The notes: a model not told the origin generated them from the letters alone. 64,000 nt of DNA from Dehalococcoidia bacterium (GCA_963663235.2 CAXXNO010000006.1:192001-256000); one strand, 5' to 3'; positions 28,886 to 41,195 are shown, counted from the first letter of the stretch. Made by a program: numbers and translations.

Positions 28886-29655
28886 TCCGCGTGGAGCGCG
28901 AGGGACGGGTGGTGCTCCTCACGCTGGACCGGCCGGAGCGGCTCAACGCCCTCACGCCCGACATGTTCGACGACCTGACCCGCTTTTGGGAGGAGTTCGA
29001 GCAGGATGACGCTGCCCACGTCGCGATCGTGACCGGGGCGGGGCGTGCGTTCTGTTCGGGACGTGATCTGGTGCGCAAGGACGCGCTGGATGACGAGCGA
29101 GCGCGAACCGTGTCAGCGGACCCCGATGCTGCTTTTGGGGCAGACCGCACGTCGAAGCCGGTGATCGCGGCGATCAACGGCTGGTGTTTGGCGGGCGGGT
29201 TCGCGCTGGCGCTGGCGTGCGACCTGCGGATCATGGCGGAGAATGCCCGCATCGGGAGCCTGGCGCCGCGGCGGGGGCTGGTCTCGGGCAGCGGGCAGGC
29301 GCAGCGCGTGGTGCGCTACGTGCCGTTCGCGGCGGGCCTGGAGCTGCTGCTGCGCGGAAACCACATCGACGCCGAGGAGGCGTACCGGATCGGGCTGGTC
29401 AACGCGGTGAGGCCGAAGGACGAGGTGCTGCCGACGGCGCACGCCTGGGCCGAAGAGATCGCCTCCAACGCTCCGCTGGCCGTCCGGGCCAACAAGCGAG
29501 CGGCCTACGACGGAGGCCTCAACGCGAACGGTGCGTTCGACGCGGGCAGCCGCATCGAACGGCAGTTGTACGACGACGTGCTGCACTCGGAGGACGTGCA
29601 AGAGGGAGTGCAGGCGTTCGCCGAGGGGCGGCCGCCGGTCTTTCGGGGGCGCTGA
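28882..29655 (+). CDS. enoyl-CoA hydratase/isomerase
   Basis: RAFCSGRDL and KPVIAAINGWCLAGG. Confidence 0.93.
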   Translation: MIRVEREGRVVLLTLDRPERLNALTPDMFDDLTRFWEEFEQDDAAHVAIVTGAGRAFCSGRDLVRKDALDDERARTVSADPDAAFGADRTSKPVIAAINGWCLAGGFALALACDLRIMAENARIGSLAPRRGLVSGSGQAQRVVRYVPFAAGLELLLRGNHIDAEEAYRIGLVNAVRPKDEVLPTAHAWAEEIASNAPLAVRANKRAAYDGGLNANGAFDAGSRIERQLYDDVLHSEDVQEGVQAFAEGRPPVFRGR

Positions 29656-29672
29656 GCGCGAGGGGCGGCCGG

Positions 29673-30485
29673 CTAGCCGGCTTCCTCCGGCTGCGGGATG
29701 AACAGCAGCTGGTCCACGAGGATCGTGTCGAACTCGTCCATCCCGTTGGCATCCATGATCTCCTCGACCGTGACGCCGTAGGTGATGGCGAGGTCGTAGA
29801 GCGTGTCGCCCTGCACGACCTGGTAGACGATGTTGTTCTCATCCCCGCGCGGCGCATCCACCACGTCGATGGGGCGGGTGAGGACGGGCTGGGGATTGCT
29901 CGGTGTCTCCACGACGATCGGGGCGGAATCCGCCTGGCCCAATTGGGAAGCGGAGACGGTCTCCGCGAGCGGGGGGACCGCGGTGGCATCCGTGGAGGGG
30001 GCGGCCGGGGGAGCGACCGGGACCGCGAAGTCCAGCGCCTCGGTCGATTGAGGGGCGATGGACGCGACCGGCGGGGCGTCGTCGCCGTCGCCGCCACCGA
30101 TGGCACCGCCGATGAAGATCACGAGCGCCAGCAGCCCTGTGAGCCCGGCGATGGCCGCCACGTGAACGGAGCCGGGCATGATCCAGCGACCGTTGGCATC
30201 GGGTCCGGGCAGGCCCAGCACGAGCAGGCGGGAGACGCCGCCACCCGTTTTGCCAAACGGCGAGCGGTTGGGCTTGTGGAACGGGGAGGCGCCCTGGGCG
30301 GAGACGGAGACGGCGCCGACCATGGCGGCTCCGTCCAGCCACCAGGCCAGCGCTCCGGCGGCGATGCTGAGCATCGCAAAGGCCAGCAACCAAGCGCCCG
30401 GGCCGGGCCAGCCCACGCCGAAGATGATGAGGAAGAGGAAGGTCCCGGTGGCGAACAGGGCGGCGGTCTTGGGGTCGAGCCGCAT
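29673..30485 (-). CDS. membrane protein with C-terminal LysM domain
   Basis: YQVVQGDTLYDLAITYGVTVEEIMDANG...L.IP; N-terminal TM helices. Confidence 0.88.
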   Translation of the reverse strand: MRLDPKTAALFATGTFLFLIIFGVGWPGPGAWLLAFAMLSIAAGALAWWLDGAAMVGAVSVSAQGASPFHKPNRSPFGKTGGGVSRLLVLGLPGPDANGRWIMPGSVHVAAIAGLTGLLALVIFIGGAIGGGDGDDAPPVASIAPQSTEALDFAVPVAPPAAPSTDATAVPPLAETVSASQLGQADSAPIVVETPSNPQPVLTRPIDVVDAPRGDENNIVYQVVQGDTLYDLAITYGVTVEEIMDANGMDEFDTILVDQLLFIPQPEEAG

Positions 30486-30618
30486 GCTAGGCCCTCCTTG
30501 CGAGGGCCCCGCCACCAGTGTGATCACTCTAGCCGATGGGTCTCTGCACGCAAGCACGCAAAGCGACCCAACGACTGGCCTAGAATACGGACGGCGACGA
30601 GAGGCGAAGGGAGGGGCC

Positions 30619-30990
30619 ATGCCGATCTTCATCGCGCTGGGGACCGTGACCACGCAAGGGATGCAGAACCTCGATCACCTCGTGGCCCGACACGACGAGG
30701 CGGTGAAGCGGGTCAAGGTGCTGGGGGGCCGCGTCTTAAGCTCGTATGCGGTCATGGGGCAGTACGACTTTATCGTCACCCTGGACTGCCCGGACATCGA
30801 GACGGCCATGCGGGTGCTGAGCCGCGAGGCGGGCGGGGGCAATATCAAGTACGAGACGATGCCCGCCCTGGCGACGCGTGACTTCGCCCGGCTGTTCCTC
30901 CCGGAGTCGGACCTGGCCGACGAGCGTACGGTGCTGCGCATGGGGCGACGGGGGCGGAAGGCCACGAAACGGCCACGCAAGAGCAGCTAG
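30619..30990 (+). CDS. GYD-domain protein with basic tail
   Basis: MGQYD motif; GGAGG RBS. Confidence 0.85.
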   Translation: MPIFIALGTVTTQGMQNLDHLVARHDEAVKRVKVLGGRVLSSYAVMGQYDFIVTLDCPDIETAMRVLSREAGGGNIKYETMPALATRDFARLFLPESDLADERTVLRMGRRGRKATKRPRKSS

Positions 30991-31094: not shown

Positions 31095-31865
31095 GTGATT
31101 CATACGGCGACCACCCGCCGTCACACGGTCCGGTTCAGCCGCGAGGTGCTGTTGATCGGCGCCGCATACGGCGCCTACCACTTGGTGCGCACCATCTCCG
31201 CCGGCAAGGTGGACGACGCGTTTGCGAACGCGAACATCATCGTCCGGATCGAGCAGAGCCTGGGCATCTTCGTGGAGTTGCCGATCCAAGTGGCGATGCT
31301 CAGTTACGATGTTCTCGTCCAATTCTTCAGCCTGTGGTACTTCTGGGGGCACTTCCCGCTGCTTATAGGGTTCGCGGTGTGGGCGTACTTCCGGCACGCA
31401 AGTGACTATCGCTGGACGCGCAACGCCATCTTCATCGCCGGGGCGCTGGCCCTCATCGGCTACCTGGTCTTTCCGGTTGCGCCGCCGCGGTTGCTGCCGG
31501 CGTCCGGTTTCGTGGACACGTTGCGGGGCGTGTTCGTGCTCCAATACAGCGACTCGGCGCTTGTCAACCAGTTCGCCGCGATGCCCAGCATGCACCAAGG
31601 GTTCAGCCTGATCATCGGCGTCACGCTGTACAAGATCCTCGGCGGCCGGAAGGGGCTCATGGCCGCGGCGGTGATCCCGGCGCTGATGCTGATCAGCATT
31701 GTGGCGACGGGGAATCACTATTTCCTGGACGCGCTCTTGGGCGTTCCCGTCGCGATCGTGGGAATGCTACTGGCGGGCCGGTTGGCGCGGTTCAAGCCTC
31801 GGCTGCCGGCGCTTGTGGAGCGATGGCGGCACCCGGGCGACCGTGGATCGGCCGCGCATGCTTGA
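31095..31865 (+). CDS. PAP2_3 / AUR1-IPT1-like membrane phosphotransferase
   Basis: FPVAPPRL, NQFAAMPSMH, ATGNHYFLD; start approximate. Confidence 0.88.
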   Translation: MIHTATTRRHTVRFSREVLLIGAAYGAYHLVRTISAGKVDDAFANANIIVRIEQSLGIFVELPIQVAMLSYDVLVQFFSLWYFWGHFPLLIGFAVWAYFRHASDYRWTRNAIFIAGALALIGYLVFPVAPPRLLPASGFVDTLRGVFVLQYSDSALVNQFAAMPSMHQGFSLIIGVTLYKILGGRKGLMAAAVIPALMLISIVATGNHYFLDALLGVPVAIVGMLLAGRLARFKPRLPALVERWRHPGDRGSAAHA

Positions 31866-31973
31866 GCGGATCGGGGCGGCGTCCAGACGCCTGCGTCCCT
31901 CCGGCGCAGGCGTAGATTTGGGCGCAGGACGCCGCAGCCTCGGGGCTGGTCGGCTGCAGAAACGGGGACGGTC

Positions 31974-33254
31974 ATGACGGAGGCGCAGGACATGTCCGCC
32001 TCGGTGAGCGAGGATCTGGCCGACCTCGCGCTGGACGAGATCGAAGGGCCCCAAGGCCGCCCGCGGACTACGGACGTCTTTGAACGGCTGCGCGACTTCC
32101 GCCTGCCGGACCAAGCCCGCGCGGTGGGGCTGTACCCGTTCTTCATCCCCATCGACGTGAACGAGGGCACGGAGGCCGTCATCGATGGGAAGCGCGTGCT
32201 CATGCTGGGCTCGAACAACTACCTGGGGCTCACGCGGCATCCGAAAGTGCTGGAGGCCGCCAAAGCGGCGCTGGAGAAGTACGGCCCGTCGATGACGGGG
32301 TCGCGCCTATTGAACGGCACGAGCGTGATCCACGAGCAACTCGAGGAGCGCATCGCGAGCTTCCTGGGCCACGAAGCAGCGTTGATCTTCACGACCGGCT
32401 ACCAGGCCAACCTCTGCGTCATCTCGGCGCTGATCGAGCGCGGGGGCAGCGTGGTCATCGACAAGATGGATCACGCGAGCATCTACGACGCGGCGGCGAT
32501 GTCGCAGGGGCAATCCGTGCGCTTCCGGCACAACGACCCCGCGCACCTGGAGGAAGTCTTGAGCGGCCTCCCGAAGGACGCGGGCCGACTGGTGGTGGTG
32601 GACGGCGTCTACTCGATGGGCGGTGACATTGCGCCGTTACCGGAGATCGTCGACGTGTGCCGCCGTCAGCAGACCCGACTGGTGGTGGACGATGCCCATG
32701 CGATCGGCACGATGGGGGAGCGGGGCACGGGCACGCCCAGCCACTTCAACATCCAGGAGGGTGTGGACCTGGTGGTCGGCACGTTCAGCAAGTCGCTGGC
32801 GTCGGTGGGGGGATTCTGCACCGGGCCGGGGTACGTGCTGGAACACATCAAGCACTTCGCCCGGCCGATGATTTTCACGGCCTCGCCGCCGCCGGCGTCC
32901 GTCGCGGCGGCGATGGCGGCGATCGAGTGCATGGAGGAGGAGCCCTGGCGGGTGGAGCGGGTCAAAGAGATCGGCGGGCGGGTGCGGGCGGCCCTGCGGG
33001 AGATGCAGTTCAACATCGGCACGACGGAGACACCCATCATCCCGATCGTCGTCGGCAGCGAGCTGAAGACCGGGATGTTCTGGCGCGACCTGATGGACCA
33101 CGGCATCTACACCAACGCGGTGATCGTGCCGGCCGTGCCGCGGGGCCAGTCCTCCCTGCGGACCTCATACATGGCAACGCACAGCGACGAACAGATCGAC
33201 CGGGCGTTGGATCTGTTCGGTGAGCTGGGGCGAAAACACGGCATCATCCCCTAA
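31974..33254 (+). CDS. alpha-oxoamine synthase, serine palmitoyltransferase-like
   Basis: GLYPFF, GSNNYLGLT, GSRLLNGT, DHASI, DDAH, GTFSKS (PLP lysine). Confidence 0.85.
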   Translation: MTEAQDMSASVSEDLADLALDEIEGPQGRPRTTDVFERLRDFRLPDQARAVGLYPFFIPIDVNEGTEAVIDGKRVLMLGSNNYLGLTRHPKVLEAAKAALEKYGPSMTGSRLLNGTSVIHEQLEERIASFLGHEAALIFTTGYQANLCVISALIERGGSVVIDKMDHASIYDAAAMSQGQSVRFRHNDPAHLEEVLSGLPKDAGRLVVVDGVYSMGGDIAPLPEIVDVCRRQQTRLVVDDAHAIGTMGERGTGTPSHFNIQEGVDLVVGTFSKSLASVGGFCTGPGYVLEHIKHFARPMIFTASPPPASVAAAMAAIECMEEEPWRVERVKEIGGRVRAALREMQFNIGTTETPIIPIVVGSELKTGMFWRDLMDHGIYTNAVIVPAVPRGQSSLRTSYMATHSDEQIDRALDLFGELGRKHGIIP

Positions 33255-33260
33255 ACCTGC

Positions 33261-34235
33261 ATGCGAGTCCTGCTGACGGGCGCCAGCGGCTTTATCGGCG
33301 GACACACAGCGCGCGCGCTGGTGGCCGCGGAGCACGACGTGCGAGCGCTGGTGCGCCCTACGAGCGACCGCGCGGGGCTGGTCGATCTCCCGATTGAGCG
33401 GGCGGTGGGCGATCTCAGCGGCGCCGGCCTCGCGGCCGCGTGCAGGGACCGCGAGGCGGTGATCCACGTCGCCGGTCTGACCAAGGCGCGTGACGAAGCC
33501 GAGTACCAGCGGATCAATTGCGAGGGCACCGCGCAACTGGCGAGCGCCGCCGCCAGTGCGGGCGTGCGGCGCTTCCTGTACGTCTCCTCGCTGGCGGCGC
33601 ACGGACCCGTCTCGACGGAGCAGTATCGCGATCCGGGCGAGCCGTGCCGTCCCGTCTCCCCGTACGGCCGCTCCAAAGCCGCCGGCGAAGCGGCCGCGCT
33701 GGCGCTGCGTGATCAGATGGCGGTGCAGGTGCTGCGTCCCAGCGTGGTCTACGGACCAGGGGACCGCGGCCTATTGCCATTCTTCCGGATGGCCCGTCTC
33801 CGCCTGATCCCGGTGATCGGGCGCGGGGAGAACCGGATTTCCTTCATCTACGCCACCGACCTGGTGGAGGGGATCACGGCCCTGCTGGCGCACGAGCCGG
33901 ACGGATCGCCGTATTTCCACATCGCGGACGCGGAAGGGCCGTACACGTGGCGGCAGTTGGTGGGGGCGCTCTCCGTAGCGGTAGGACGGTCGGTAGCAGT
34001 CGTGCCGGCGCCGGCGCTGGGCTTCAGCGCCGCGGCGGTGCTGATGGAGGGAGTGGCCAAAGTGGTGCGCCGACCGGCGCTCCTCGATCGGGGCAAAGTA
34101 GCGGAGATGAAGCAGCGCGCGTGGGCCTGCGACAGCGCCGCGCTGACGGCCACGACCGGCTGGACGCCGCGGACGCCGCTGGCAGCCGGCTTGCGCGACA
34201 CGGTGGAGTGGTATCGCCAGCACGGCTGGCTGTAG
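33261..34235 (+). CDS. NAD-dependent epimerase/dehydratase family reductase
   Basis: TGASGFIG, SSLAAHGP, YGRSK, VYGPGD. Confidence 0.92.
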   Translation: MRVLLTGASGFIGGHTARALVAAEHDVRALVRPTSDRAGLVDLPIERAVGDLSGAGLAAACRDREAVIHVAGLTKARDEAEYQRINCEGTAQLASAAASAGVRRFLYVSSLAAHGPVSTEQYRDPGEPCRPVSPYGRSKAAGEAAALALRDQMAVQVLRPSVVYGPGDRGLLPFFRMARLRLIPVIGRGENRISFIYATDLVEGITALLAHEPDGSPYFHIADAEGPYTWRQLVGALSVAVGRSVAVVPAPALGFSAAAVLMEGVAKVVRRPALLDRGKVAEMKQRAWACDSAALTATTGWTPRTPLAAGLRDTVEWYRQHGWL

Positions 34236-34237
34236 CG

Positions 34238-34837
34238 ATGAGCGCCCGCGATGCCGGCGCATCGGGGGACCGCCCGCTGCTCTCGTTCGACCTGGACGGC
34301 GTCCTGGCTGCACCGCCGTTGGGACGCAACCTCACCATGAATCGCCGGCTCGACATGTCGCCGCCGGAGCGTGAGATCGCGCAGCGGCGGCTCTCCGCGT
34401 GGGACCGCGTGCTCATGGCGACGTACTACCGCGTGCGCTACAGCGGGCGCGGGCCGATGCCGGGCGCGCTGGACGCCGTCGCCACGGCAGCCGAGCGTCA
34501 TCGCGTCATTCTGATCAGCGGCCGTGACCGGCGCGGGCGGCTCGCCACCGAGGCGTGGCTCGATCGACACGGCTTCCTCTCGCTGTTCGAGGACGTGCTG
34601 TTGAACGACAGCGGGCTGCCGCCCGCGGACTTCAAGTATTTGACGGCGCGCCGCTTGGGCGTGCGTCGCCATGTGGAAGACGATGCGGGAACCGCCGCGC
34701 TGCTCGCGCGCGCCGGCATCGCCGTGGACTTGATCGATTGGCCGCGGAATCGCGGGCTGACGCTGCCGCCGGGAGTGACGCGTCGGGCGGATCTGGCGGC
34801 GCTGCAACAGGCGATCGCGGCAAAGGCGGAGGCGTAA
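34238..34837 (+). CDS. HAD-superfamily phosphatase
   Basis: FDLDGVL, ISGR, FK, VEDD motifs I-IV. Confidence 0.82.
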   Translation: MSARDAGASGDRPLLSFDLDGVLAAPPLGRNLTMNRRLDMSPPEREIAQRRLSAWDRVLMATYYRVRYSGRGPMPGALDAVATAAERHRVILISGRDRRGRLATEAWLDRHGFLSLFEDVLLNDSGLPPADFKYLTARRLGVRRHVEDDAGTAALLARAGIAVDLIDWPRNRGLTLPPGVTRRADLAALQQAIAAKAEA

Positions 34838-34860
34838 GCGCTGCGTGTTACGCTCGGCGC

Positions 34861-35223
34861 ATGGCCAAGAAAGAGCGCGCATTCGCCATCCACGCACCCC
34901 CCGCGGTGATCTGGAAGACGCTGATGGGCGAGGTGGAGGAGGGCGTGCGCAGCGGTCGCGCGGTGATCGTGCATCAAGAGGCGCCCCGGCGTCTGGTGTT
35001 GGAGATCCGCCTGGGCTGGGGGTTGGCGGCCCGCTACACCTATGAGCTCTCGCTGGCGGGCGCGCACACCGAGGTCGCAGGGAGAGTGGACGCGCACGGC
35101 GTGCGCAATCGCGTCGCCCGCGTGATCACGCTCGGCCGATCCTCGACGCCGTACATGCTGGCGCTGACCCAAGGCCTGGCCAACCTCAAAGCCGCCGCCG
35201 AGGAAACCGCGAGAGAAGCGTGA
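34861..35223 (+). CDS. SRPBCC/START-like small protein
   Basis: IHAPPAVIWKTL...LANLKAAAE. Confidence 0.7.
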   Translation: MAKKERAFAIHAPPAVIWKTLMGEVEEGVRSGRAVIVHQEAPRRLVLEIRLGWGLAARYTYELSLAGAHTEVAGRVDAHGVRNRVARVITLGRSSTPYMLALTQGLANLKAAAEETAREA

Positions 35224-35313
35224 CCGGCGCGCGGCCTGTGTAGCGTTTGACTCGCCGCCGGCGTGAAGCGAACAATGGAAGCCGGAGGGGCGGGGCCGGG
35301 ACGAGGGGCGACC

Positions 35314-36657
35314 ATGCGGCGAGCGGCTCTCATCGCGGCGCTGGCGTTGCTGCTCGCCGCGACGGCGCTTTCCGCCACGCCCGTCACGCGGGCGCAATCG
35401 CTTGCACACGGCGACACTACCGGCGCATTGCGCGATAGCGTCGCGCCCGTGCGGATCAATCGGCCGCTGCAGGGGATCGTGCTGACGTGGGAAGGCGGCC
35501 GACTGGTGCGCCTGGCGGGGGCCCACATCGGCACGGGAGAGACGGCGCTGCAGACGGACGCGACGGGGCGCTTCAGCATCCCGGCGTCGATCCGCACGGA
35601 CCGGCTCAACGTCGTTGCCCCGGGTTACGCCGTGGTCCGTCGGACGACGACGGCCGATTACGCGGTAGTGCTGATGCGCCCGCTGGCCGAGGTACGCGCC
35701 ATCTATGTCCCCTACGCACAGCTCGATCGCCCGGAAGTCTTGGACTGGGTGCTGGGGCTGGCGCGCAGCCGGGTCATCACCAGTGTGGTCCTGGACATGA
35801 AGGATGACAGCGGGCAGGTGCATCCCCTGTTCGCCACGGACCTGGCGCGCCAGGCGGGGAGCGTCAAACCACTGCCCACGGACATCGACGGCTTCCTGCG
35901 GGATTTGGACGCGCTCGGCATCTACACGATTGCCCGCGTAGTCACGTTCCGCGACAGCCTCTTTGGGCGCGCGAACCCCGCGGACGCGATCCTCACCCAC
36001 GGCGGCGAAGTCATGCGGGACATCCAAGGGCTGGTCTGGACGAATCCCTTCAGCGAGACGGCGCGCCGTTACAACGTGGAGATCGCGGCCGAGATCGCCA
36101 AGCGGTTCGACGAAGTGCAGTTCGACTACGTGCGCTTCCCCGCCGACGCGGACGTCGCGGTGCGTTCCGCGACCACGAGCGAGGAGCGGTCGGCGATCAT
36201 CGGGCGGTTCCTGGCGGAGGCGGCGACGGCGATCCACGCGCAGGGCGCTGCGATCGCGGCTGACACCTTTGGGCAAACCACGCTCATCGAGCACGACGAC
36301 GGAATCGGGCAGGTCCTGGAGTTCATGGCGCCGGAGTTGGACTACTACTCGCCGATGGTCTACCCGAGCACCTGGACCACGGGGTGGTTTGGCTTGCCGT
36401 ACCCGCCCTCCGACCCATACCGCGTGGTGCTGGAAAGCGTGCGCACCGCCGTGGAGCGAATGTCGACGCTGGGAAACGTCGTCGTGCGACCCTGGCTGCA
36501 AGACTTCCACGACTACCAAGAGCAGAGTCTGCCGTACGGTGCTGCGGAGGTGCGGCTCCAGATCGAGGCCGCCGCGGAAGCGGGGGGGCAGGGCTTCATG
36601 CTGTGGGACCCCAGCCTGCAGTACCAATTGGGCGTGCTCGCAGAACTCGCCCCATAG
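35314..36657 (+). CDS. secreted putative glycoside hydrolase (DUF4015-like)
   Basis: Signal peptide; FDEVQFDYVRFP, SPMVYPS, RPWLQDF. Confidence 0.85.
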   Translation: MRRAALIAALALLLAATALSATPVTRAQSLAHGDTTGALRDSVAPVRINRPLQGIVLTWEGGRLVRLAGAHIGTGETALQTDATGRFSIPASIRTDRLNVVAPGYAVVRRTTTADYAVVLMRPLAEVRAIYVPYAQLDRPEVLDWVLGLARSRVITSVVLDMKDDSGQVHPLFATDLARQAGSVKPLPTDIDGFLRDLDALGIYTIARVVTFRDSLFGRANPADAILTHGGEVMRDIQGLVWTNPFSETARRYNVEIAAEIAKRFDEVQFDYVRFPADADVAVRSATTSEERSAIIGRFLAEAATAIHAQGAAIAADTFGQTTLIEHDDGIGQVLEFMAPELDYYSPMVYPSTWTTGWFGLPYPPSDPYRVVLESVRTAVERMSTLGNVVVRPWLQDFHDYQEQSLPYGAAEVRLQIEAAAEAGGQGFMLWDPSLQYQLGVLAELAP

Positions 36658-36703
36658 CCCAGCCTCGCAGCGACGGCCACAGCGGCGGGTGTAACCTGAG
36701 GCC

Positions 36704-37780
36704 GTGACCACGACCAGCGAACAAACCGAGCGAGAATCGCCGGCGGACGTGCTGGACCGTCTCACCGTGCCCGGCGAGCTGGTCGAAACCCTGCCGGCGG
36801 GGCGGGTGCGCTGCGTGGCGTGCGGACATCGCTGCCTGATCCCGCCGGGCGCGCGCGGCGTCTGTCGCGTGCGCTTCAACCGCGAGGGCGAGTTGCGCGT
36901 GCCCTCCGGCTACGTGGGGGCGCTGCAAGTGGACCCGGTGGAGAAGAAGCCATTCTTCCACTTTCTGCCCGGCTCCACAGCGCTGTCGTTCGGGATGCTG
37001 GGCTGCGACTTCCACTGCGGCTACTGCCAGAACTGGGTCACGTCGCAAGCGCTGCGCGACCCCGCGGCGGAGGGCGGCGCCCAGCCGGTGGAGCCGGCGG
37101 AGCTCGTGCGGACGGCGCTGGAGCGGGGCAGCCGCCTAGTCGTGAGCACCTACAACGAGCCGCTGATCACGTCGGAGTGGGCGGTCGCGGTGTTCAAGGA
37201 GGCGCGGCGGGCAGGGCTGCGCACGGCCTACGTGTCCAACGGCAACGCGACGGCGGAAGCGCTGGACTATATCGAGCCGTACGTCGATGCGTACAAAGTC
37301 GATCTCAAGTCGATGCAGGATCGGAACTACCGGCGGCTGGGCGGCGTGCTGGAGCACGTGCTGTGGACGATCCGTGCGGTCCACGAACGAGCGATGTGGC
37401 TGGAAGTGGTCACGCTGCTGGTGCCCGGCTTCAACGACAGCGACGACGAATTGCGCGAGGCGGCCGCGTTCCTGGCCGGAGTGTCGCGCGATATTCCCTG
37501 GCACGTCACCGCCTTTCACCCGGACTACAAGATGGTGGACCCCGAGCGCACGCCGACGCGGACGCTGCTCCGCGCCACGGAGATCGGACGGGCGGCAGGG
37601 CTGCGCTACGTCTACGCGGGCAACCACCCGGGGATGGTGGGCGAGTGGGAGAACACCCGCTGCCCGGGCTGCGACGCGACGCTGGTGCGCCGGTCCGGGT
37701 TCAACGTGCAGGAGCAGCGGCTGGACAGCGGCGGGGTCTGCCCCGACTGCGGCAGCCCGGTCGCCGGCGTCTGGGCCTAG
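36704..37780 (+). CDS. amrS: AmmeMemoRadiSam system radical SAM enzyme
   Basis: DPVEKKPFFH, CDFHCGYCQNW, TYNEP, WHVTAFHPDY. Confidence 0.9.
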   Translation: MTTTSEQTERESPADVLDRLTVPGELVETLPAGRVRCVACGHRCLIPPGARGVCRVRFNREGELRVPSGYVGALQVDPVEKKPFFHFLPGSTALSFGMLGCDFHCGYCQNWVTSQALRDPAAEGGAQPVEPAELVRTALERGSRLVVSTYNEPLITSEWAVAVFKEARRAGLRTAYVSNGNATAEALDYIEPYVDAYKVDLKSMQDRNYRRLGGVLEHVLWTIRAVHERAMWLEVVTLLVPGFNDSDDELREAAAFLAGVSRDIPWHVTAFHPDYKMVDPERTPTRTLLRATEIGRAAGLRYVYAGNHPGMVGEWENTRCPGCDATLVRRSGFNVQEQRLDSGGVCPDCGSPVAGVWA

Positions 37781-38554: not shown

Positions 38555-39244
38555 CTAGCACGGGTCCTGCGCGTCCCCGGAGGTTGCGAGGCGTTCGATG
38601 GTGTAGAGGACGGGGATGAGCACGAGCGCAGCCCATACCCAGCCGCCCAGAACGTCCGAGGGCCAGTGCACGCCGAGCGAGACCGCGGCCCAGGGCTGTA
38701 AGAAGACGGCGCCGAGGCCCCAGGTAGCGATGGGCAGGCGCAGCCAGAGCGGGCCAGGGATGCGCCAGCAGAGGTATAGCAGCAGCACCCCGGCGAGCGT
38801 GCCGCTCATCACGTGTCCGCTGGGAAAGCTAGACGAGGTGACGGATGCGTGCCGATCTAGCAAGTCCAGCGAGGGGCGGGGGCGGTCGACGGCGAGCTTG
38901 AGCAGCGCCTGCAAGGCGAAGGCCGGCAGGATCGCGGCGGAGAGCAGCGCCGCTCGGGGCCGACGGAGCGCGAGCAGCGCCACGACAACGAGGGCCACTA
39001 TCGCGAGGGAAGCCGGCGTGGAGCCAACATCGCGGAGGAAGCGGCCGAGGTCGCGGCCGGGCACGTCGTTCGCCTGCACCCAGCGGCCCACCGCGACATC
39101 GGCAGGGAAATGATCGGCCTGCGCCGCCCAGGCGGACATGGCGATCGCGCCGACGAGGAGGGCGATCCAGACGGCAAGCAGCAGCGTGCCGCTGGCGGGC
39201 CGGGGCGGGATCGAGGCCCAGGTTGCGTCAATCGTGGTGCGCAG
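38555..39244 (-). CDS. PAP2-family phosphatase (start uncertain)
   Basis: KLAVDRPRP, SFPSGH, LGVHWPSDVLGG. Confidence 0.85.
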   Translation of the reverse strand: MRTTIDATWASIPPRPASGTLLLAVWIALLVGAIAMSAWAAQADHFPADVAVGRWVQANDVPGRDLGRFLRDVGSTPASLAIVALVVVALLALRRPRAALLSAAILPAFALQALLKLAVDRPRPSLDLLDRHASVTSSSFPSGHVMSGTLAGVLLLYLCWRIPGPLWLRLPIATWGLGAVFLQPWAAVSLGVHWPSDVLGGWVWAALVLIPVLYTIERLATSGDAQDPC

Positions 39245-39267
39245 GGGGCGGCTCCGCTCGGCCGCAT

Positions 39268-39303
39268 CGTAACTTGGTGCGTAACTTGGTGCGTACCTTG
39301 GTG
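39268..39303. repeat. 12-bp tandem repeat x3
   Basis: CGTAACTTGGTG CGTAACTTGGTG CGTACCTTGGTG. Confidence 0.85.
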
Positions 39304-39377
39304 CGGGGGGAAGAGCAGGCGCCCGCCCGTGGGGAGCGGACGCATCCGGAGTTCGCGGTACACTGAAAGCGGTCGGA

Positions 39378-41195
39378 ATGGCGCACCTAGCATCCCAACA
39401 TCTTGGGTTTCGGGATCGACTTTCGCGGCGCGCTCTGCTGCGCGCGGCGGCGCGCGCGGGGGTCGGGGCGACCGCGCTCGCGGTCGCCGGATGCGGGGAG
39501 GAAGCGGAACCGCCGGAACTCAGTGAGCCGCCGGACCTGGAGACGCTCCTCCGGGAGGTGCAAGAGCCGATCAGGGCACAGCGGCCGCCGCTGCCGTCGG
39601 AGGGGGTCCCGGAGCGGGGGGGGACGTTACGGCTGCACACCGATCTCGACCTGCTGGACTTCTTCGACATCCATCGCTCGCGGTTCCCCACCACCCAGGC
39701 ATTCTCCGCCCTGCAGCAGAACCGGCTGATCCGCTACGCGGACATCAACGCCGGAATCATGGAGAGCGACCTGGCCGCGCTGCCGGAGATCCCGGAGGCC
39801 GATACGTACGTCTTTGAGCTCAAAGAGGGAATCCACTGGTGGGACCGGAACCCCACGAACGGCCGCCCGTTCACCACCGCGGACGTGCGCGCGAACTTCG
39901 AACGGCAGATCGCCGGCGTCGACGCAACGGGTGAGCCCGACCCGCTCTTCCAGCGGCAGGCCGCCTTCGCCGAGACCATGACGCTGGACGTGGTTGATGA
40001 GCGAACCCTGGTCCTGCAAACCGACGGGCCCAATGCGGCGTTTCTCGGCAGCGTCATCGCGGGGCCGTGGGCGTTCTTTCAAGCGCCGGAAGTGTGGGAG
40101 GGGAATGGAGACCGCCTGCGCGACGACCCGCTGCACGCGTCCTTCTACAGCGGCACCGGTCCATTCATCGTGGACCGATTCGTGGAAGGGAGCGCGATCA
40201 GCTTCCGGCGCAACGCCGCCTATTTCCGGGAGGAGTTGCCACGGCTGGACGCGATTTCGTACCAGAGTTTGACCGACCCAGCCCGGCAGGAGAGCGCCTA
40301 CCGCGAGGGGGAACTGGACCTCTGGAGCCCCGCCGACCCCCTGCTGCTGGAGCCGCTGGTGCGCGACCTGCCGGACCAGCGGCTCAGCGACCGCCCACTG
40401 CCGTTCGCCATCCAGGCGTCGTTTCTTTTCCGGAGTGGAGTGGGAGACAACCCCTACCGCGACCGCCGCCTGGCGCTGGCCGTGCACCTGGCGCTGAATC
40501 GATTCGCCATCGTCGCGGCCACCTACGGCGGATTCGCGCGGCTGAGCGGGCCGCAGCCGTGGTTCGCCGAGGGCTGGGCGATCCCAGAGGAGACCCTGCT
40601 GGAACTTCCCGGATACCGCCCGGACAAGAGCGAAGACATCGTGGAAGCGCGCCGCCTGGTGGACGCCGTGGGGCATCGGGAACCCCTGCCGCTGGTGGTG
40701 CCGGACGTCTTCGAGGCCACCTTCGCGGGCATCGGAGCGGTCATCCGCCAAAACCTGGAGGTGAACCTGGGGGTCCCGATAGAGATCCGGACAGCGAGCT
40801 ACGCCCAGATCATCACCGGGCTGCGTGAGGGGACGACGTTCGCCGCCCTGGGCTGGGGCGACGCCATCACGGACGCGGACCCCACGGCGGATCTCCTGCG
40901 GACCATGCACAGCGAGGGCGCGGACAACCTGGGAGGGTTTTCGGATCCGACGCTGGATGTGGCCATCGAGCGGATGCGGGCGACGCTCGACCGAGACGAG
41001 CGCCAGCAGATCTTTCGGGACGAGGTGCAGCCGCGCTTAAACCGGAGCCCCGCCTGGATCGTCAACGTGGCCAACGGGATCCAGCGCAGCATCAGCCGAG
41101 CCGCCATCCATCTCCCCGCCTCCGGCTTCGGCTGGGACCCACACCTGCTGGAGCAGGCGTGGGTGGAAGGCAGCGACCTGGACGAAGGCGCCTGA
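39378..41195 (+). CDS. ABC family-5 substrate-binding lipoprotein (Tat)
   Basis: SRRALLRAA...VAGC; paralogue of 3261-5189. Confidence 0.9.
   Translation: MAHLASQHLGFRDRLSRRALLRAAARAGVGATALAVAGCGEEAEPPELSEPPDLETLLREVQEPIRAQRPPLPSEGVPERGGTLRLHTDLDLLDFFDIHRSRFPTTQAFSALQQNRLIRYADINAGIMESDLAALPEIPEADTYVFELKEGIHWWDRNPTNGRPFTTADVRANFERQIAGVDATGEPDPLFQRQAAFAETMTLDVVDERTLVLQTDGPNAAFLGSVIAGPWAFFQAPEVWEGNGDRLRDDPLHASFYSGTGPFIVDRFVEGSAISFRRNAAYFREELPRLDAISYQSLTDPARQESAYREGELDLWSPADPLLLEPLVRDLPDQRLSDRPLPFAIQASFLFRSGVGDNPYRDRRLALAVHLALNRFAIVAATYGGFARLSGPQPWFAEGWAIPEETLLELPGYRPDKSEDIVEARRLVDAVGHREPLPLVVPDVFEATFAGIGAVIRQNLEVNLGVPIEIRTASYAQIITGLREGTTFAALGWGDAITDADPTADLLRTMHSEGADNLGGFSDPTLDVAIERMRATLDRDERQQIFRDEVQPRLNRSPAWIVNVANGIQRSISRAAIHLPASGFGWDPHLLEQAWVEGSDLDEGA

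Follow-up and report, generated by a model that had tools for sequence, protein, structure and literature searches.

Long thought to be rare, bacterial sphingolipids are now predicted from metagenomic surveys in a large number of phyla, including the Chloroflexota. A ceramide pathway with the enzymes Spt, bCerS and CerR was reportedly described in Caulobacter crescentus by Stankeviciute et al. in 2022 and, to our knowledge, almost nothing is known about head-group enzymes and accessory proteins outside Bacteroides and Caulobacter. The Caulobacter pathway is given as Spt-bCerS-CerR in the available text of PMC11087976. As for the head group, the accessible part of Heaver et al. 2022 (PMC9246714) shows experimentally that BT_1522 of Bacteroides thetaiotaomicron, a homologue of yeast AUR1, is a phosphatidylinositol (PI)-dihydroceramide synthase. 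In the Chloroflexota, the excerpted text of Ding, von Meijenfeldt et al. 2024 (PMC11334938) reports Spt-like ‘clade B’ proteins in 218 metagenome-assembled genomes (MAGs) of a phylum ‘not previously identified’ as a producer, and a 2025 sediment paper, in the part available, repeats the prediction that Chloroflexota produce sphingolipids. The subject of the present analysis is a candidate sphingolipid gene cluster of a Dehalococcoidia bacterium, found in a stretch of 64,000 nucleotides (hereafter the window; C6:192001-256000, CAXXNO010000006.1) of a genome labelled G000, which comprises 2.75 Mb in 14 contigs and is 92% complete. A sequence-only reading of the window had placed this cluster in a lineage without a known sphingolipid pathway, a claim that has to be given up in view of the Spt-like proteins already reported in the 218 Chloroflexota MAGs (PMC11334938, excerpted text). 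Literature pairing Dehalococcoidia with serine palmitoyltransferase (SPT) was sought and none was found, although supplements, which lay outside the search, may list such genes; a search for literature linking PAP2 with bacterial SPT returned nothing relevant.

The locus is read here as the lineage’s version of the bacterial ceramide pathway, with Spt, bCerS, CerR and a head-group enzyme, a reading to which we assign a probability of about 0.65. Its coordinates, as determined from the open reading frames (ORFs), agree with the four co-oriented genes (G1 to G4) previously noticed at positions 31095-34837, the last three of which are 6 and 2 nt apart, and a fifth gene (G5) has to be added. In what follows, the substrates, the succession of steps, the identity of the head group and what G4 and G5 do are all inferred. 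G2 (Spt) would join serine to a long-chain acyl thioester, forming 3-ketosphinganine, which would be N-acylated by an unlinked bCerS homologue encoded at C2:28306-29487. G3, a CerR-like short-chain dehydrogenase/reductase (SDR), would reduce the 3-keto group to yield dihydroceramide, and G1, with its intact His/His/Asp set, would take a phospho-alcohol head group off a glycerophospholipid and place it on the 1-OH of ceramide, as do AUR1 and BT_1522. G4 and G5 would be a family-specific accessory pair, most likely handling a phosphorylated hydrophobic intermediate of the pathway.

The synthase gene G2 (31974-33254, + strand) encodes 426 residues with the class I/II aminotransferase fold of the alpha-oxoamine synthases (AOSs; Pfam Aminotran_1_2, E 1.3e-57). 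Its top matches in the PDB are serine palmitoyltransferases, at 368.6 bits end to end, with other SPTs at 284-304 bits; lower down come a BioF/Kbl-type enzyme (272 bits), Kbl (246.8), cysteate-C-fatty acyltransferase (228), BioF (220), ALAS (204) and CqsA (126). On the NCBIfam models, G2 scores 458.3 bits for SPT-CFB, 413.5 for SPT-Beta, 372.4 for bioF, 337.1 for SPT-Alpha and 334 for Kbl. Used as controls, E. coli BioF gave 497 bits on bioF and 247 on SPT-CFB, E. coli Kbl gave 747 bits on Kbl and 348 on SPT-CFB, and three second AOS copies of relatives (genomes G005, G015 and G032) turned out to be true BioF, at 427-437 bits and above the cut-off of 426. The motifs GTFSKS (residue 269, bearing the lysine that holds pyridoxal phosphate), HASI (167) and DDAH (239) align with those of a solved SPT, and the GLYPFF, GSRLLNGT and GTFSKS motifs that had been singled out in the synthase are all present in the translation. 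Second AOS copies occur among the relatives G005, G009, G015, G020, G023 and G032.

Phylogeny points in the same direction. Scanning with G2 and with an alignment of seven rows yielded 113 Spt-like loci, 110 of which lie outside the family of the organism, including two loci of the same class. In a FastTree analysis of 143 rows (locus L135 being left out for an internal stop), a 138-row Spt-like clade with support 99 excludes E. coli BioF, E. coli Kbl and the three BioF paralogues; these five were the only outgroups, and the rows held no characterised Spt, HemA or CqsA. Within this clade, G2 groups with its family (support 100), the next group being the Dehalococcoidia loci L076-L078, ordered Spt-bCerS-SDR. 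An IQ-TREE analysis (LG+C20 PMSF, quick search) of 58 rows chosen to span the groups gave support 99 for the split from BioF/Kbl, 100 for the family and 99 for the family together with L076-L078 and L093. By scores and trees, G2 is therefore Spt-like, nested among Spt-like genes that adjoin bCerS and CerR genes and apart from BioF and Kbl; the earlier suggestion that the synthase is closer to SPT than to BioF or Kbl holds on the PDB and NCBIfam scores with their controls and on both trees, among rows without characterised Spt or HemA. Its predicted reaction would be the condensation of serine with acyl-CoA or acyl-acyl carrier protein (ACP) to 3-ketosphinganine.

G3 (33261-34235, + strand; 324 residues) begins 6 nt after G2 and encodes an extended SDR of the NAD-dependent epimerase/dehydratase type (Pfam Epimerase PF01370, E 1.1e-35), with GASGFIG at residue 7 as NAD(P) site and YGRSK at residue 135 as catalytic YxxxK. 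Its identity with the SDRs beside the Spt-like genes of other loci is 24-45%, rising to 31-45% where bCerS is present too and to 41-45% in the Dehalococcoidia loci L076-L078. Its best NCBIfam match is HpnA, at 120.9 bits versus a cut-off of 367.65, and there is no CerR model among the matches. By homology, G3 is orthologous to the SDR of the Spt-bCerS-SDR clusters of other phyla, and it is probably CerR-like, reducing the 3-keto group with NAD(P)H. The neighbourhoods of the 110 non-family loci, whose counts are minima as many contigs are short, hold a CerR-like SDR beside 67 Spt-like genes and a bCerS homologue beside 60, and representative loci show, by Pfam, an arrangement of SDR, Spt and a protein of ~370 residues with a weak GNAT match.

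Neither bCerS nor ACP, bio or tdh genes had been seen in the cluster, and family scans found none of them in the part of the window between 26 and 40 kb. The expectation that N-acylation is encoded elsewhere is supported by a bCerS homologue of ~390 residues on another contig (C2:28306-29487), unlinked to the spt operon. It was matched at C2:28309-29421 by the gene in the bCerS position of a Phycisphaerales locus (E 3.3e-68, 35% identity, residues 4-373 of 380), is 42% identical to the genes of the Dehalococcoidia clusters and has a weak Pfam GNAT match (E 7.3e-4). Its co-occurrence with Spt was surveyed among 40 relatives, namely 24 family genomes and 16 other genomes of the class. Every family genome carries an Spt-like gene (60-81% identity) and a bCerS homologue (24/24 each), and so do two genomes of other families, G025 and G028, whose full-length Spt-like genes are 53% and 50% identical to G2. 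In the remaining 14 class genomes neither bCerS (0/14) nor a full-length Spt-like gene (0/14) was found; the AOS of G032 is BioF, and G040 (71% complete) has only an Spt-like fragment of 90 residues. The co-occurrence of bCerS with Spt is thus exact among relatives that, as kin, are not independent. The homologue on C2 is neighboured by Nuo genes and a PHP protein, and its contexts vary within the family; the PHP phosphoesterase was considered as a partner of bCerS and dropped, as the adjacency is kept in one of the 12 loci checked, in the nearest genus only.

Behind cerR stands a second conserved gene pair. G4 (34238-34837, + strand; 199 residues), 2 nt after G3, matches no Pfam family at threshold, the best being PF00702 (E 0.056, 14.3 bits versus a threshold of 26.4). 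In 26 orthologues, however, the HAD motif residues D18, D20, K133, D148 and D149 are invariant, with S/T-x-R at 94-96, and a structural model (predicted local distance difference test score, pLDDT, 88.6) retrieved HAD hydrolases and 5'(3')-deoxyribonucleotidases with Foldseek (best E 2.6e-7), without a specific functional match. By motifs and modelled fold, G4 is an HAD-superfamily phosphatase-like protein. The four families originally proposed (PAP2_3, AOS, extended SDR and DxD HAD) are in this way all retained, by Pfam for G1 to G3 and by invariant motifs and the HAD-fold model for G4. G5 (34861-35223, + strand; 120 residues), 23 nt further on and overlooked in the sequence-only reading, which stopped one gene short of the conserved unit, matches neither Pfam nor NCBIfam. 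Its model (pLDDT 82.7) is that of a small SRPBCC/START-like helix-grip protein and was likened by Foldseek to CalU16, CoxG, TcmN ARO/CYC and Rv2186c (E 7e-5 to 1e-3, template-modelling score up to 0.69), from which we would expect a binder of hydrophobic ligands. Cluster look-ups for G4 and G5 led only to unnamed Chloroflexota, NT5C/FCP1-like and Polyketide_cyc2-like clusters.

The conserved family operon is spt-cerR-HAD-SRPBCC. AOS and SDR genes are adjacent in 23 of the 24 family loci (in the other, L050, the contig ends after the AOS gene), and the order AOS-SDR-HAD recurs in all 22 family loci whose contig reaches that far, which makes the arrangement more than chance. G4 and G5 come next in 22/24 family loci, the other two genomes carrying the pair on separate short contigs. 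G4 is found in 24/24 family genomes, with weaker relatives in 4/16 genomes outside, and G5, which always follows G4, in 24/24 family genomes and 0/16 other class genomes. Linkage of the four genes, as first proposed, thus holds for the AOS-SDR-HAD part and less so for the PAP2_3 gene, which is linked in only 11/24 family genomes. In the family loci without G1, the upstream neighbour of spt is a LysM gene in divergent orientation, and spt is therefore the first gene of the unit. Examples of such LysM-domain genes are found at L053:7450-8286, L056:7520-8413, L062:4863-5858 and L046:4324-5223.

Upstream of the synthase, and separated from it by a spacer of 108 nt (31866-31973, + strand), is the GTG-initiated gene G1 (31095-31865, + strand), whose product of 256 residues matches PAP2_3 (PF14378, E 5.8e-41, 140.8 bits versus a cut-off of 27) and has four strongly hydrophobic stretches, as befits an integral membrane protein. 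R132, H167 (in PSMH, 164), H208 and D212 (in NHYFLD, 207) are invariant in 12 sequences, and we take PSMH and NHYFLD to be the catalytic His (C2) and His…Asp (C3) motifs. Searches of solved structures gave no sequence match at E <= 1 with G1 alone, nor at E <= 10 with a 12-row profile. Orthologues (58-66% identity) occur in 11/24 family genomes, one of them truncated (G015), and all sit immediately upstream of spt (11/11 family loci, 9/9 in a wide scan), forming a single clade (20 rows, support 100) whose position is kept across five genera or more. The orthologues come from the genera g1, g2, g4, g5 and g6 and from part of g10; G020 and the genera g3, g7, g8 and g9 yielded none.

G1 is a candidate phospho-head-group transferase acting on ceramide, with chemistry that by analogy would be like that of AUR1 and BT_1522. 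The best argument for a head-group role is that the PAP2_3 family has been recruited repeatedly and independently to ceramide clusters. A hidden Markov model built from G1-type sequences and five Pfam-confirmed PAP2_3 genes found PAP2_3-like ORFs beside the ceramide clusters of 19/110 non-family loci, five of them Pfam-confirmed; by phylum, these are 11 of the 12 loci of Gemmatimonadota, 2/3 of Planctomycetota, 2/32 of Nitrospirota, 1/2 of Acidobacteriota, 1/2 of Eisenbacteria, the single locus of Thermodesulfobacteriota (1/1) and 1/10 unclassified loci.

Regarding the head group itself, PI as donor, and phosphoinositol as the group transferred, are plausible. Phosphoinositol is the most plausible choice because the genome encodes an inositol-phosphate synthase (MIPS) and a CDP-alcohol phosphatidyltransferase. 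Both belong to an inositol-lipid cluster at C12:379546-385008 (L152:5546-11008) that comprises genes for an inositol monophosphatase, MIPS, two Lip_A_acyltrans (lipid-A-type) proteins, a PHP protein and the CDP-alcohol phosphatidyltransferase, an ensemble that to our eye recalls the PI and acyl-phosphatidylinositol mannoside loci of actinobacteria. The inositol-phosphate synthase whose presence in the genome the sequence-only reading had left to be looked for is thus found on contig C12. A DAGK_cat lipid kinase is also encoded in the genome; the family is common in bacteria and its presence uninformative. A kinase gene of the DAGK_cat/YegS type stands at L064:2618-3553 (+ strand) in genome G025, which belongs to another Dehalococcoidia family; it lies ~400 nt from the SDR-bCerS-Spt cluster there and is a candidate ceramide kinase.

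A number of observations weigh against the ceramide reading. The support for the pathway comes from gene content, homology, conservation and co-occurrence. G2 stays under every curated SPT cut-off (458.3 versus 640 bits for CFB, 413.5 versus 500 for Beta and 337.1 versus 670 for Alpha), these NCBIfam models being specific to their clades; an Spt-like gene of Nitrospirota that has bCerS and CerR next to it likewise misses the cut-off (579 versus 640). The loci entered the trees because of their relatedness to G2, so that the clustering is partly built in, and characterised Spt, CerR and bCerS proteins are not among them; the label ‘Spt-like’ is founded on gene context and on the scores against the PDB and NCBIfam. 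Two class genomes without Spt have G4-like proteins as well, and MIPS occurs in 41/41 class genomes, so that it is in no way specific to this locus and an inositol head group is only permitted, not indicated. G1 is matched weakly by NF052609, the model for PI-dihydroceramide synthase (29.9 bits versus a cut-off of 480), and the paralogue unlinked to spt (C4:335005-335673) scores alike (33.7). All 24 family genomes have such a paralogue of G1 (36-41% identity), as do four class genomes without Spt, and the nearest relatives of G1 outside the family in the wide scan (Streptomyces, Acidimicrobiia and other Chloroflexota) are near Spt in 0/71 cases. G1 itself was not found beside spt in 13/24 family genomes, is truncated in G015 and was not found in G020, which makes it dispensable.

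These last observations lend some weight to the view that G1 is not a sphingolipid enzyme at all and is a duplicated housekeeping PAP2_3 lipid phosphatase or transferase, of glycerolipids or inositol lipids, that merely lies upstream of spt. The ubiquitous paralogue, the Streptomyces and Acidimicrobiia relatives that are never next to Spt and the loss or truncation of G1 in part of the family all fit such a view, as does the 108-nt gap before spt, which gave no sign of co-transcription: a motif scan of the spacer revealed no consensus promoter or terminator, and the hairpin it can form is no more stable than those of shuffled sequence (z -0.56). G1 may be co-transcribed with G2 or be a transcription unit of its own. 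On the other hand, the Spt-adjacent copies constitute one well-supported clade that has held its position across genera, ceramide clusters of several other phyla have acquired PAP2_3-like neighbours, and in Bacteroides a PAP2_3 homologue, BT_1522, has been proved to be the PI-dihydroceramide synthase (PMC9246714, accessible part). A housekeeping G1 is, on balance, somewhat unlikely; it concerns the head-group step only and is compatible with a ceramide core. A trace of damage at the locus of G015 (L047, G015:C3:2471732-2475585), where the spt-adjacent PAP2_3 gene is cut to its C-terminal half (residues 125-239) and G5 is in two pieces, may reflect decay of accessory genes or an assembly error.

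A more adventurous proposal, which we consider unlikely, is that bCerS has been displaced from the cluster by the HAD and START-like pair, that the route is a modified one running via a phosphorylated lipid intermediate and that G1 represents a new clade of bacterial phosphoceramide synthases; the products would be phosphosphingolipids in single-membrane Chloroflexota, which have never been described chemically. In such a route, the phosphorylated intermediate may be a long-chain base or a head-group precursor, trimmed by G4 while G5 holds the lipid, and the product of G1 may be inositol-phosphoceramide.

The pair G4-G5 also invites the explanation that what the operon makes is a long-chain amino alcohol, free or modified in some other way, and that Spt and the reductase do so together with the HAD and START-like proteins, without bCerS. 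The product might be a sphingoid base, a 1-deoxy base made from alanine or glycine, or the outcome of a phosphorylated amino-acid route with dephosphorylation by G4, and the distant bCerS would serve another function. It would agree with the varying contexts of bCerS outside the family cluster and with G4 and G5 occupying its place behind cerR, a feature that none of the 110 non-family Spt loci shares (0/110 for G4 or G5). It would also agree with the finding that no SerB-type phosphoserine phosphatase reaches the cut-off in the genome; G4 as a general serine-pathway phosphatase was rejected, G4-type genes being found in only 4/16 outside genomes. Against this, none of the 24 family genomes has lost bCerS, and over the 40 relatives its distribution matches that of Spt without exception, which is hard to explain if the two are unrelated, and the Spt and SDR of the family are nested next to canonical Spt-bCerS-SDR clusters. 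We therefore hold a route without bCerS to be decidedly improbable and retain the ceramide reading, in which bCerS takes part from its distant position. That G2 is simply the organism’s BioF or Kbl, serving biotin or threonine metabolism among unrelated neighbours, is disfavoured and scarcely credible: it is the sole AOS gene of the genome (tblastn of G2 against the whole 92%-complete genome) and its 372 bits on the bioF model are not far under the cut-off of 426, but a biotin role is unlikely because no BioB reaches the cut-off in the genome (best 39.5 bits versus 225), the SPT models and solved SPTs score higher, other family genomes have true BioF paralogues besides an Spt-like gene, these paralogues being placed outside the Spt-like clade, and, as had been said before of the context, no bio or tdh genes are nearby. 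The lack of BioF and BioB above cut-off in G000 suggests biotin auxotrophy.

Further features surround the cluster. G6 (35263-36657, + strand; 464 residues), 39 nt after G5, encodes an exported protein with one N-terminal hydrophobic stretch and a putative glycosyl-hydrolase domain of the DUF4015 type (Pfam PF13200, E 1.2e-86); in 19/22 family loci G5 is followed by a DUF4015 gene, which the nearest genus (L040-L042) lacks, and membership of G6 in the pathway is doubtful. The window has a G+C content of ~69%, at which long spurious ORFs are plentiful, and two of these, at 34498-36879 (- strand, 793 residues) and 29184-30881 (+ strand, 565 residues), were set aside as high-GC shadows that match no family and overlap well-supported genes lying on the opposite strand or in another frame. 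In one metatranscriptome run, contigs of 225 nt and 151 nt are identical to 31124-31347 and 32568-32718, at a depth of ~3; DNA carry-over being possible, they were not counted as expression. Directly downstream of the lipid genes, at 36704-37780 (+ strand), lies a gene for the radical SAM enzyme of the AmmeMemoRadiSam system (TIGR04337, 290.7 bits versus a cut-off of 220), kept in the same place in the nearest genus. Further on, at 38555-39694 (- strand), a classical PAP2 protein (PF01569) of 379 residues is encoded, with a long N-terminal extension and a weak likeness to SepP and undecaprenyl-diphosphatase; its gene stays near the cluster in several family loci and has a 49% paralogue on contig C5.

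The locus provides a testable gene set for a Dehalococcoidia family: an Spt/bCerS/CerR core, a PAP2_3 candidate for the head-group transferase and a phosphatase with a lipid-pocket partner. Environmental sphingolipids abound in sediments and in anoxic water columns; if the ceramide reading is true, it would help to trace them to the organisms that produce them, and it would offer new enzymes to the biochemistry of bacterial sphingolipids.

Comparison with the known systems brings out both likeness and difference. As in the Caulobacter pathway, the same three enzyme types are found in the genome, the Spt-like AOS adjoins an extended SDR, as it does in many bacteria, and a bCerS of ~390 residues with a weak GNAT match co-occurs. 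Unlike there, bCerS lies apart from the cluster, the vicinity holds neither a dedicated ACP nor an acyl-ACP synthetase, HAD and START-like genes follow cerR and the host is a Dehalococcoidia-type Chloroflexota, not a proteobacterium; the likeness is one of enzyme type, gene adjacency and co-occurrence. With clade B of Ding et al. 2024, the locus shares an AOS that clusters with Spt homologues neighbouring CerR and bCerS, which is the same defining criterion, and a phylum named as a potential producer; the excerpted text of that paper highlights Anaerolineae and describes no PAP2_3, HAD or START-like partners (PMC11334938).

For the head-group step, G1 resembles BT_1522 in being an integral-membrane PAP2_3 protein that matches the catalytic half of NF052609 (positions 109-283 of 305), lies by sphingolipid genes and belongs to an inositol-phosphate-capable genome. 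The two differ in that the Bacteroides gene, according to the accessible part of its description, sits in an inositol cluster and not beside spt; G1 is beside spt but weak on NF052609. In the Gemmatimonadota, Planctomycetota, Nitrospirota and Acidobacteriota, among other phyla, the PAP2_3 family flanks Spt-bCerS-CerR as well, suggesting head-group addition as a common fourth step, yet those PAP2_3-like genes are very distant from G1 (tblastn with G1 found none), some also match PAP2_C, and their place is downstream of cerR, that of G1 upstream of spt. Taken together, these comparisons lead to the computational prediction of a core that is an ordinary bacterial ceramide pathway, in a phylum to which metagenomic work had already drawn attention. 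The local variations are the unlinked bCerS, the lineage-specific PAP2_3 copy upstream of spt and the HAD and START-like pair, present in no other Spt locus examined.

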